Below, one piece after another: positions 10,268 through 33,089 of a DNA stretch of 64,000 nucleotides. The notes beneath the pieces are model-generated. The model searched no databases. It had not been told where the DNA came from and saw nothing but the letters and a program-made list of their open reading frames with translations. Position 1 is the stretch's first letter, and every line of letters starts with the position of its first letter. Location: assembly GCA_951406725.2 (NCBI GenBank), contig OX597817.1, positions 108,810,001 to 108,874,000 on the forward strand, in the 5' to 3' direction. Made by a program: the position numbers and the translations under genes. The DNA is from Octopus vulgaris (taxonomy: Eukaryota).

Positions 10268-10834
10268 GGCGGCAAGCTGGCAGAATCGTTAGCACGCCGG
10301 GCGAAATGCTTGGCGGTATTTCGTCTGCTGCTACGTTCTGAGTTCAAATTCCGCCGAGGTCGACTTTGCCTTTCATCCTTTCGGGGTCGATTAAATAAGT
10401 ACCAGTTACGCACTGGGGTCGAATATAATCGACCTAATCCGTTTGTCTGTCCTTGTTTGTCCTCTCTGTGTTTAGCCCCTTGTTGGTAGTAAAGAAATAG
10501 GTATTTCGTCTGCCGTTACGTTCTGAGTTCAAATTCCGCCGAGGTCGGCTTTGCCTTTTATCCTTACGGGGTCGATAAATTAAGTACTAGTTACGCACTG
10601 GGGCGATATAATCGACTTAATCCGTTTGTCTGTCCTTGTTTGTCCTCTCTGTGTTTAGCCCCTTGTTGGTAGTAAAGAAATAGGTATTTCGTCTGCCGTT
10701 ACGTTCTGAGTTCAAATTCCGCCGAGGTCGGCTTTGCCTTTTATCCTTACGGGGTCGATAAATTAAGTACTAGTTACGCACTGGGGCGATATAATCGACT
10801 TAATCCGTTTGTCTGTCCTTGTTTGTCCTCTCTG
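10268..10834 (+). mobile_element. SINE family A with its body amplified to about 3 tandem units
   Basis: One head, then units starting GGTATTTCGTCTGC at 10315, 10500 and 10683. Confidence 0.9.
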
Positions 10835-23578: not shown

Positions 23579-24853
23579 TCAGGTCATCCCATAAGCTCTG
23601 ACCGAATGTTGAATAGAGAAAACAAATGATCAAATATTATATTTAATTGAAAGTTAATCATCAATGTACTTTCCCTCATTATCTATGGCTTCCTTCCATC
23701 TCTTTACAAGCTTTTTAATCCTATCAATGTAAAACTCTTTTGGTTTCAAAGCGAAGAACTCTGAAATGTCAGTTTTGACATGCTCCTGGTTTGCGAAAGT
23801 TATGTCCCCCAAATGATTCTGTAAACTACGAAACAAATGGTAGTCTGAAGGAGCAAGGTCGGGAGAATAGAGTGGATGAGGAATTTTTTCCCAACCAAGC
23901 TCTTCGATCTTCTGTGATGTGATCTTTGCAGTGTGGGGTCGCGCTTTGTCCTGATAAAACATCACTCCTTTTCGATTCACTAAAGCGGATCCTTTTTTCT
24001 CCAAAGCTTGGTTCAAACGCTCTAATTGCTGACAGTTGAGTTGAGCATTGATTGTTGCATTAGGTGGTAACATTTCAAAGTGAATTACTTCTTTGCAATC
24101 CCACCAGATAGAGAGAAGAACCTTTTCCCATGAAGTTCCCTTCATGGCTGGGGTTGAGCTGTTTCCATTTTACCAAGCCACTGTTTACGACGTATAATAT
24201 TTCGATAGAATATCCGTTTTTCATCACCAGTCACAAGTCTATCCAAAATGGGTGAAATAAGTTTGCAAGAATGGAGAGAAGAGCAGATGTCAACTTGGGA
24301 TTCGCAGTTGTTTTCGGACAATTCTTGAGGCACCCATTTTCCAAGTTTAGGAACCTTTCTAAGCTGTTGAAGATGACGATGAACAGTTGTATGGTGTGAA
24401 CTAAACTTTATTGTCAATTCTTCAACTGAAAATGCATGATTTTCTTCAAGTAATGCCTCAAGAAGCTTATCATCAAACTCAACTGGACGTCCCGTTCAAT
24501 CTTCATCTTCAAGGCTGAAATCTCTACTTCTGAATTTTGCAAAGCATCTTCTACAAGTTCTCTCATTCAAGCATCATTTCCCATATACTGAGTGTATGTT
24601 TCGAGTGGCTTCGGCTGCAGAGTTTCCTTTTTTGTACTCATAAAGCATTATGTGCCTCAAATGCTCTTTTGATACTTCCATGTTAGAAAGGGTTTTAATC
24701 AAAGAAAGACATTTTTATTCTATTATTGTGTAAAATAATATTTAATCAGTTTAAATGTACACAAATGCATAAACATAATTTTTAATTCCATTAGACATTC
24801 TAAAGTACTAAAAAAAAAAGGTAAAATCGGACAGAACTTATCGGATGACCTGA
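23579..24853 (-). mobile_element. Mariner (DD34D) transposon, full length, frameshifted transposase
   Basis: TIRs TCAGGTCATCC(C/G)ATAAG with TA flanks. Transposase 24681 to 23654: MEVSKEHLRHIMLYEY, WVPQEL, VTGDEK, QDKARPH, YSPDLAPSDYHLF. Confidence 0.97.
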
Positions 24854-30973: not shown

Positions 30974-31020
30974 CAGCCACTGAGGAGATCGCACAACGTT
31001 GAAATAACGTGATCTGGCAG
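30974..31020 (+). ncRNA. Degenerate type I hammerhead (unit 1 of an old ~329-bp dimer)
   Basis: CAGCCA-CTGAGGA-GATCG...CGTT-GAAA-TAACGTGA-TC-TGGCAG. Confidence 0.55.
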
Positions 31021-31302
31021 CTCTGACGCCCGTGTTAGACCGTCCACGTCTGCAACAATATATGTTTATGATCTTGGTACCGTAGGTCTATAAAAAAGAA
31101 ACTCTTAAAGTGAATACGGCAGTATTCAGCGTTCCAACAGTGCATCCATTTTAAATTAGATATAAATATTTTCATTCTGCAATATTCAAATCTTACTGCT
31201 TCTGACGGTAATATCTGCTTTTAATAAGCAATGTGAAACATCCCTGTTATTCTATATATCGTTGACAGTAAGATTTGGCTGTATGCAGCTAACGGAGGGC
31301 GC

Positions 31303-31348
31303 CTATGACTGAGGAAGCAAAGTACACTGAAATTGTATGATCTGGCAG
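31303..31348 (+). ncRNA. More degenerate hammerhead (unit 2 of the dimer)
   Basis: CTGAGGA(31309)-AG...CT-GAAA-TTGTATGA-TC-TGGCAG. The 5' arm of stem I is lost. Confidence 0.4.
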
Positions 31349-31790
31349 TTCCGACGCCTATGCCAAACGATTCTCGTCTGCTCTGATATATGCTCTTAGT
31401 GCCGTTCGTCTATATAAAGATTGCCATCAAAAGAAACCTTCGAGAATATCGGAGATATATGTATAGTAGTAATACTGACAGTTGCGATGTTAATCGTCGC
31501 TGTGTAAACGTAATGAAACGTAACTATATTTTGTTATTTTCTTCGTACACAGAAAAATATAGGGAACATATTAATATGCAGCATAGTGTACAGACTATTC
31601 ATTACAAGCTAAACTATGAAATATATAGTGTAGATTACTAAAATAATAAATATAAGAGAGTGGTCACTATATGGCTCACTCTAGCACTAGTTAATCCAAA
31701 AGGTTTCAACCACAAAAATATATGTTTCCCATGAAAGTCAGTACGATTGTTAGCTCACACGAACAGGGCAAATAAAAAATAACAAAAATA

Positions 31791-31886
31791 CAGATTATTT
31801 TGGGACAATTGTTTCGCTATTAATGAATTAAATGTAATTTTACTTACAAAAAAATCCACTTGTAGCTCCTCAGCCAAAACTATCTG
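31791..31886 (-). ncRNA. Type I hammerhead ribozyme, copy 1
   Basis: Minus strand: CAGATAGTTTTGG-CTGAGGA-GCTA-(43 nt)-TAGC-GAAA-CAATTG-TC-CCAAAATAATCTG. Stem I pairs at 12 of 13 positions; cleavage predicted between 31804 and 31803. Confidence 0.9.
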
Positions 31887-32326
31887 GATGAAATCCACTC
31901 AATCACACGCCAGATTTTACCATAACGATAAATACACGTGTGGTTCAATTGATTACATCCGACGTTATAATTCAAATGCCCCTACTAACAGCGCGCCAAA
32001 CTTTCACGGAGACAAATACCACATTTAGAAATAAATGTAGCATAATTATAATTAATTAATAAGGGTGAGAGAATTAGATACTAATTTAATAGCATATCTA
32101 TTCAACACCAAGTGGCCCAGTGCTCCGAGAAACCTGGATTATTATAATATTTTGTAATATATTATAATATTTTATACAAAAATAAATATAAGAGAGTGGT
32201 CACTATATGGCTCACTCTAGCACTAGTTAATCCAAAAGGTTTCAACCACAAAAATATATGTTTCCCATGAAAGTCAGTACGATTGTTAGCTCACACGAAC
32301 AGGGCAAATAAAAAATAACAAAAATA

Positions 32327-32422
32327 CAGATTATTTTGGGACAATTGTTTCGCTATTAATGAATTAAATGTAATTTTACTTACAAAAAAATCCACTTGTA
32401 GCTCCTCAGCCAAAACTATCTG
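32327..32422 (-). ncRNA. Type I hammerhead ribozyme, copy 2
   Basis: Same sequence as 31791-31886, offset by 536 bp. Confidence 0.9.
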
Positions 32423-33089
32423 GATGAAATCCACTCAATCACACGCCAGATTTTACCATAACGATAAATACACGTGTGGTTCAATTGATTACATCCGACG
32501 TTATAATTCAAATGCCCCTACTAACAGCGCGCCAAACTTTCACGGAGACAAATACCACATTTAGAAATAAATGTAGCATAATTATAATTAATTAATAAGG
32601 GTGAGAGAATTAGATACTAATTTAATAGCATATCTATTCAACACCAAGTGGCCCAGTGCTCCGAGAAACCTGGATTATTATAATATTTTGTAATATATTA
32701 TAATATTTTATACAAAAATAAATATGTAGATTACTATATATTTCTGTCTACAAGGAGAATAACGAATTGAGTCTCTTGACATCTCAGAATTTAATCACCT
32801 ATAAGAAAGAAAGTAAAATGAAGGGGAACATAATGAGATAAGCTGGAGCTATGAATGAAAAGGCTGCGAAAAAGTGCAGCAGCATTAAGCATTTAAAGAT
32901 GTTCAGGATGGGTGACAGAAGAAACGTGAGATGATTAAAAGCAGTGGAAGAAGTGCAAGATGGTGAGTTGTTATGTGAGGGAGATTCATTGGAGTGTTTA
33001 CCTGAGGTGCACGTGAAAGCCAGTGACACCAGCACGAGAAAGGTGAGGAAGAAACATTGTTGCGCAAACAGAATATGTATGTATGTATG

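Follow-up and report, generated by a model that had tools for sequence, protein, structure and literature searches.

Hammerhead-bearing retrozyme copies in the genome of Octopus vulgaris carry a Penelope-like insertion footprint

The 64,000-nt stretch of Octopus vulgaris DNA analysed here (the window; G000:C4:108810001-108874000 of a 2.8-Gb assembly) carries two head-to-tail units of 536 nt which, as judged from their sequence, belong to a young, abundant and protein-free family. The copies of this family carry a Penelope-like footprint, consisting of (TA)n targets, scattered 5' ends, arms arranged head to head and two fixed 3' ends. That we are dealing with a retrozyme mobilised by the machinery of Penelope-like elements (PLEs) is well supported; the element is of a known kind. 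Our best explanation, which we consider somewhat better than an even bet, is that this non-LTR retrozyme with its Penelope-type footprint is copied by a PLE reverse transcriptase (RT) rolling on circular monomer RNA. Despite the known kind of the element, its hundreds of very young insertions constitute a record of the mechanism.

The extent of the insertion in the window (Table 1) was determined by repeat comparison. Positions 31645-32189 equal 32181-32725 with 0 mismatches (545 bases at a period of 536), which bears out the two identical head-to-tail units described in the earlier note. In the RNA sense, the 5' end corresponds to monomer 151 and the 3' end to monomer 159, followed by four extra bases at the left junction (31641-31644); both ends therefore lie near monomer 151-159, away from the cut site. 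The flanking 12-mer occurs within the 64-kb window at 31629 and 32725 only. A contig from sequencing run X17, filed under another organism label (organism D), links 31628 to 32725 with 1096 bases absent and retains one copy of the 12-mer; 12 letters of it are compatible with both sides, and its shorter side comprises 183 letters. Because this contig shows an empty site with a single 12-mer, the 12-bp target-site duplication (TSD) is genuine and the block represents one insertion, as had been claimed for both. Contigs of runs X16 and X15 continue past the flanks for 28-29 bases of element sequence, short of the 31-base threshold, and a filled site is only suggested for these runs. The empty target, with its TA-rich arms, forms a hairpin of 12 bp closed by a loop of 7 nt. 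The predicted monomer (32339-31804) has a length of 536 nt and a GC content of 32%, and folds better than all of 100 shuffled versions (100/100; z -5.8). No stop-to-stop ORF of at least 150 aa overlaps the insertion, so the unit is non-coding and contains no ORF for an RT with a GIY-YIG domain. Another locus with 1.2 units (L004) is identical to the window copy wherever the two correspond, and could be a daughter or sibling of it. Elsewhere, the window contains a mariner-type transposase fragment at 23654-24169 on the minus strand (PF01359, E 9e-15) and a tandem repeat at 10315-10834 (period 183, 2.8 copies, 96% matches).

Table 1. Features of the retrozyme insertion and its target in the window (positions of the 64,000-nt stretch).
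Feature	Position	Strand	Evidence
Whole insertion, 2.02 head-to-tail units of the 536-nt non-coding retrozyme	31641..32724	-	repeat comparison
Upstream type I hammerhead, predicted cut between 32340 and 32339	32327..32422	-	descriptor scan, fold
Downstream type I hammerhead, predicted cut between 31804 and 31803	31791..31886	-	descriptor scan, fold
Predicted cut-to-cut 536-nt monomer (candidate circle)	31804..32339	-	
Start site A: hairpin, CUUAU, AU-rich run; monomer 122-159; likely priming end of window copy	31645..31682	-	
Start site A, internal copy	32179..32218	-	
Start site B: hairpin, CUUAU, AU-rich run; monomer 231-293	32047..32109	-	
Start site B, second copy	32583..32645	-	
Target-site duplication, left copy, 12 bp	31629..31640	.	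empty site in run X17
Target-site duplication, right copy (first base also fits element)	32725..32736	.	empty site in run X17
Inverted repeat of target, left arm, 12 bp	31618..31629	.	fold of empty target
Inverted repeat of target, right arm, 12 bp	32733..32744	.	

A descriptor scan of both strands identified two minus-strand hammerheads with cores at 32409 and 31873 and cuts after 32340 and 31804, together with two weak plus-strand fits at chance level. Scan and fold agreed with the type I motif previously proposed for each unit, with stem I paired at 12 of 13 positions and a stem II of 4 bp, the core words CUGAGGA and GAAA, and a GUC site. The 43-nt loop of stem II folds into a stem of its own, and stem III consists of 2 bp with a palindromic tetraloop, which suggests that a double-hammerhead form may be adopted. 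The search with Infernal-type models and the covariation analysis that had been recommended had a divided outcome. None of the Rfam hammerhead models matched the motif at the gathering score or at E<=10, probably due to the long loop II. Conversely, the alignment of six hammerheads (the window and five diverged copies), a set of few, related sequences that were partly chosen by their stem III motif, showed 91% of the cells paired and two-sided change in 8 of 18 pairs, which was reached in 0 of 500 shuffles, and slid registers came nowhere near the true one. The compensatory changes backing the fold come from a sister subfamily of about 72% identity. N7, a free core position, was the only core base to vary strongly across 56 locus consensuses (G24/C20/A8). 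Judged by its variation, the motif is under selection.

Arms were longer where stem I contains a mismatch, with a median of 1924 bp in 13 such loci compared to 676 bp in 16 others (p 0.0015), a comparison that is confounded with subfamily; array length may be limited by the cleavage rate, or this may be a lineage effect. The longest arrays, with up to 12.7 units, belong to a subfamily whose stem I contains a C-A mismatch (L046, L048, L060 and related loci). Further hammerhead repeats with a long loop II, some of them in inverted pairs, were noticed at L073:45-117, L074:131-532, L099:2954-3033 and L234:7337-7715 and are likely to represent additional retrozyme families. In the window itself, two segments 328 bp apart (30975-31064 and 31303-31392) are 71% identical, are multi-copy in DNA contigs, and each contain plus-strand words resembling the CUGAGGA and GAAA cores, without the canonical stem arrangement.

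A search for other genomic copies, as called for by the retrozyme proposal, yielded 2134 exact genome-wide matches of a 22-base hammerhead motif that spans the cut, compared to 0 for the control. The first 100 matches fell into 33 loci on contig C1, and extrapolation from the approximately three motifs per locus on C1 suggests about 700 loci in the genome. Searching with the unit gave 1324 first-look candidates, of which 39 were scored. The family is dispersed over most contigs, its loci contain 0.1-12.7 near-identical units, and it is present in sequencing runs under four organism labels. None of the runs recorded as RNA contains the unit; contigs from runs guessed to be RNA cover it, with strand, ends and circles unreadable and high-copy DNA as a potential source. 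The variants between loci showed no clear excess indicative of A-to-I editing (A>G 22, T>C 22).

To describe the insertions, arms were mapped in 56 loci, 23 of which were chosen by similarity and 33 as the first loci on C1 with the motif, after nine duplicates among L001-L030 had been removed; 20 further loci, all long arrays of one subfamily, brought the total to 76, so that 23 of the first 56 and all 20 later loci were chosen by similarity or length. In the hammerhead sense, the 3' ends lie at monomer ~160 (A) or ~293 (B), 133 nt apart. With the A and B windows defined after data inspection, each of the 34 one-armed loci ended at A (22) or B (12), while 39 of the 42 two-armed head-to-head loci combined one A with one B end; AA and BB pairs did not occur (0 each), and the other three loci had one off-site end. 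An A+B combination in 23 of 23 cases alone has a chance of about 1e-7 under independent choice. Three loci of the sister subfamily showed the same end pattern by eye. The arms met head to head with a few bases of overlap or filler, and several A junctions repeated a few bases of the template, comparable to the four additional bases in the window copy. Two-armed copies made up 16 of the 33 C1 loci. By contrast to the fixed 3' ends, the 5' ends were distributed uniformly over the monomer (KS p 0.43 and 0.80). In all 76 loci, the unit was adjoined by itself or by flanking DNA only and never by a coding region.

In the first locus set, (TA)4 adjoined 77 of 80 A or B ends. The clean 12-bp TSD of the window is real at this locus but atypical of a family that inserts into (TA)n. 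The window copy thereby documents a duplication and an empty site of a kind that (TA)n insertions normally hide. Each of the two start sites lies directly behind a succession of hairpin, CUUAU and AU-rich run. Pairing of both hairpins is kept in the sister subfamily, and monomer 261-293 showed 0 differences in 1806 bases among locus consensuses, compared to 2.06% overall. Taken together, copy number, empty site, hammerhead covariation and insertion footprint support the identification as a retrozyme, and the A/B ends, inverted arms and (TA)n targets support the participation of a PLE-type enzyme, both of which the earlier note had put forward.

These observations also bear on the interpretation as a satellite or rolling-circle repeat propagated at the DNA level, carrying a chance or relic hammerhead, or as a mis-assembled dimer. 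Identical units in tandem would be expected of either. Polarised ends, the A+B rule, the TSD with its empty site, the covariation of stem I and the dispersal over most contigs all speak against such an origin, and other loci contain 2.0-12.7 near-identical units. We regard such an origin as highly improbable, the least credible of the explanations considered.

In a search for a helper, GIY-YIG domains gave 6136 candidates, of which 150 were scored. Three young PLE families were found with intact frames for an RT with C-terminal GIY-YIG and an upstream CxxxxCxxC motif; they appear Neptune-like by the description in the Craig preprint. PLE-1 codes for 765 aa, inserts into (TA)n targets and has two 3' ends separated by 38 nt; two-armed copies numbered 2 of 16, both of the A+B type (one seen directly, one from alignment ends). 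PLE-2, with a 775-aa RT and GIY-YIG ORF and a period of 4270, is present in at least 76 copies that are 100% identical over the query. A distance of about 40 nt separates its two ends. Among 16 unselected copies, 8 were two-armed, and A+B was found in 5/5 two-armed copies with both ends in view; insertions of more than one consecutive unit likewise occur. PLE-3 had 0 two-armed copies among 16 and one 3' end, resembling the CUUAU sites, in 15/15 cases seen, and by its footprint it is a poorer helper candidate. A variant hammerhead-like motif was recognised by eye upstream of the end in all three families. The two-armed rate of the retrozyme is closest to that of PLE-2. The footprint shared with PLE-1 and PLE-2 suggests that the retrozyme is copied by a PLE reverse transcriptase acting in trans. 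These three very young autonomous families, with their intact frames, are represented by L104 (G000:C6), L114 (G000:C3; PLE-2) and L233 (G000:C6). Extra frames precede the RT in PLE-1 (479 aa) and PLE-2 (223 and 266 aa), and a Pfam scan of one upstream PLE frame gave no clear match.

BLASTN and an nhmmer profile revealed no retrozyme homology beyond a TA-rich bias in 83 PLE-bearing loci, nor was any found in the termini of 16 PLE-3 loci; the retrozyme showed no similarity to the termini of PLE-1, PLE-2, PLE-3 or older fragments, and no chimera with PLE-1 or PLE-2 was present in 56 loci. Because none of the three families shares sequence with the retrozyme, we refer to its helper as a candidate PLE. 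PLE fragments lie next to L048, L061 and L063, and one lies 1.1 kb from an old diverged copy (L148); these were discarded as partner links, since microsatellites lie in between and the proximity looks coincidental. The anatomy of the unit, a hammerhead followed by two start sites, matches the termini of PLE-1 and PLE-2, and in Xenopus 21 retrozyme matches to PLE termini are reported in the accessible text of 10.64898/2026.07.22.740005. The unit might accordingly be the terminal repeat (pLTR) of an autonomous PLE that escaped our search, with the arrays as 5'-truncated by-products; the homology search covered PLE-1, PLE-2, PLE-3 and older fragments. Yet none of the 76 loci shows a coding region behind the unit, and together with the missing homology in PLE-bearing loci and PLE-3 termini this makes a present-day pLTR improbable. 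An ancient origin of the retrozyme from a pLTR is likely.

We then considered the template. Divergence was 0.27% within an arm and 0.24% between the arms of a locus, compared to 3.25% between loci. In 23 loci of one subfamily, 19 variants were fixed, being present in all units covered at their locus and frequently in both arms (three variants in 7/7 units of L219; 7/7 in L217), 47 were singletons, and 7 were common to part of an array. Within-locus variants were thus mostly singletons, both there (47/54) and in the 56-locus set (68/73), where five were partly shared. Partly shared variants included two linked ones three units apart in L215 and others in 3/6 units of both arms of L218 and in 3/5 units of L226; L046 and L064 contained them as well. 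For a new variant to become fixed across seven units and both arms, an array must pass through a one-unit bottleneck and be amplified afterwards. Repeated reading of a circular monomer would be the simplest route to such array-wide fixation and would fit the lack of stops at the cut site, where none of 122 5' ends was located (the nearest being at monomer 5) despite 281 arm passages through it. The same distribution rules out cleaved linear monomers as templates, and template jumping between different monomers is ruled out by the seamless junctions and the homogeneity of the arrays. Because a pure monomer circle would give no partly shared variants, multimer templates (linear or circular) or later gene conversion are likely to contribute.

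Reading through the cut site is in itself no proof of a circle, because the purified green anole PLE PAc mainly inserts uncleaved RNA: according to the accessible text of PMC11167929, this is the dominant substrate, and hammerhead mutants still insert. With this biochemical precedent, PLE machinery with two start sites could also be imagined to use an uncleaved linear multimer, with the arrays homogenised and lengthened afterwards at the DNA level by unequal crossover and gene conversion; the hammerhead would then serve another step or need the protein. Variants common to part of an array, the longer arms with weakened stem I (confounded with subfamily), the insertion of more than one unit in a row by autonomous PLE-2, and the cleavage of only 1/9 tested dimers in the Xenopus study (10.64898/2026.07.22.740005, accessible text) all fit such a template. 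However, linear copying only shortens arrays and would pass unit-specific variants to daughters, while three fixed variants, but no unit-specific ones, are common to the sibling arrays L214 and L215. Moreover, no internal substitution occurs in the 12.4 units that make up the two arms of L060 or in the 11.6 units of L213, the arms of a locus are as alike as the units within an arm, and the within-locus variants are mostly singletons. We therefore consider a linear multimer rather unlikely.

Our preferred reading, copying from a circular monomer, would proceed as follows. Transcription of tandem copies on the hammerhead strand, followed by cleavage, would supply 536-nt monomers, which a host ligase would convert to circles. 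The GIY-YIG nuclease would open TA-rich DNA, mostly (TA)n and in the window a TA-rich hairpin, with a stagger of 12 bases, a step that is visible as footprint. Equally reflected in the footprint, cDNA would begin inside the RNA at A (~160) or B (~293). Both cut ends would serve as primers on the same template, one at A and the other at B, as expected of a protein dimer, and the two cDNAs would meet head to head. Finally, the enzyme would repeatedly pass the hammerhead cut site and drop off at random, leaving 0.1-13 near-identical units. Within this explanation, the window copy would be a one-armed event from start site A of just over two turns. The more specific version, in which a dimeric Penelope-type protein occupies two hairpin-CUUAU sites on one ribozyme circle, primes in pairs and lets two RTs roll, we hold tentatively, at slightly less than an even chance.

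The short RNA and the intact enzymes encoded in the same genome make two questions testable. One concerns the enzyme by which animal retrozymes are spread and whether it uses the circle as its template, the other the origin of the one-sided tail and the head-to-head inversions of PLEs. If two RTs indeed roll on one circle, this would represent the first direct evidence of animal retrozyme circles as transposition templates, and a single mechanism would account for the unexplained tails, inversions and tandems of PLEs.

The family combines the structure of metazoan non-LTR retrozymes (one hammerhead per unit, dispersed tandem units of low GC content without coding capacity, a TSD of more than 4 bp) with that of non-autonomous PLEs (fixed 3' ends, an optional tail, random 5' truncation, partial tandems and an inverted arm). 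It differs from the plant LTR retrozymes, which have type III hammerheads in LTRs and a 4-bp TSD, by its type I motif, tandem units and 12-bp TSD. The following comparisons refer to the accessible text of the papers cited. Among PLEs, PAc, a Poseidon element of the green anole (Frangieh et al. 2024, PMC11167929), likewise has two internal RT starts downstream of its hammerhead and AT-rich targets; both strands are cut and extended, a dimer is predicted, and the "tail" is the distance between the two start sites. Unlike the retrozyme, PAc is autonomous, its sites are adjacent, and no strand difference in start site was seen in vitro, whereas 133 nt separate the two sites of the retrozyme, and in 39/42 two-armed insertions each arm uses a different one. 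PLEs and non-autonomous Chlamys elements such as MRC1 (Craig et al. 2021, PMC8557442; Arkhipova et al. 2013, PMC3846280) share with the retrozyme 5' truncation, partial tandems, a head-to-head inverted copy, a (TA)n bias, TSDs (there of 8-10 bp), a tail that is often present at one end only and non-autonomous copies arranged head to tail. Their tails measure 30-40 bp, in contrast to the 133-nt tail and the wholly non-coding unit with a canonical hammerhead described here; these papers attribute tail and inversion to nuclease resolution or to self-priming rather than to priming in pairs from two sites. The one-sided tail is already known for PLEs, and we did not find the rule of one A arm and one B arm stated for retrozymes in the literature on insertion ends covered by our search. 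A search of equal scope on retrozymes, hammerheads and Penelope elements in octopus and other cephalopods found no description of this family.

The closest relatives in structure are the non-LTR retrozymes of coral, mussel and axolotl (Cervera and de la Pena 2020, PMC7229834), which are likewise low-GC non-coding tandems with a type I hammerhead, thousands of motifs, a 2-bp stem III with tetraloop and a TSD of more than 4 bp. They differ in their unit length of 170-400 nt, compared to 536 nt with a 43-nt loop II in our case. Although the earlier note had held the unit to be longer than other animal retrozymes, its length is not unusual, since retrozyme units of 51-972 bp have been reported (10.64898/2026.07.22.740005). 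The latter vertebrate survey (Li, Clavereau, Pollet), which sampled no mollusc, likewise describes non-autonomous PLE derivatives in the form of monomers, dimers and multimers, and explains the arrays by local expansion. In coral, mussel and axolotl, monomers were shown to be cut and circularised, while the present element, known from DNA, yields a candidate circle. Circles were proposed as templates in that study, with PLEs as a strong candidate helper on the basis of co-occurrence, and the vertebrate survey linked retrozymes to PLEs by pLTR homology together with co-occurrence; in the octopus family, the link is read without pLTR homology from the ends, targets and inversions of the insertions themselves.
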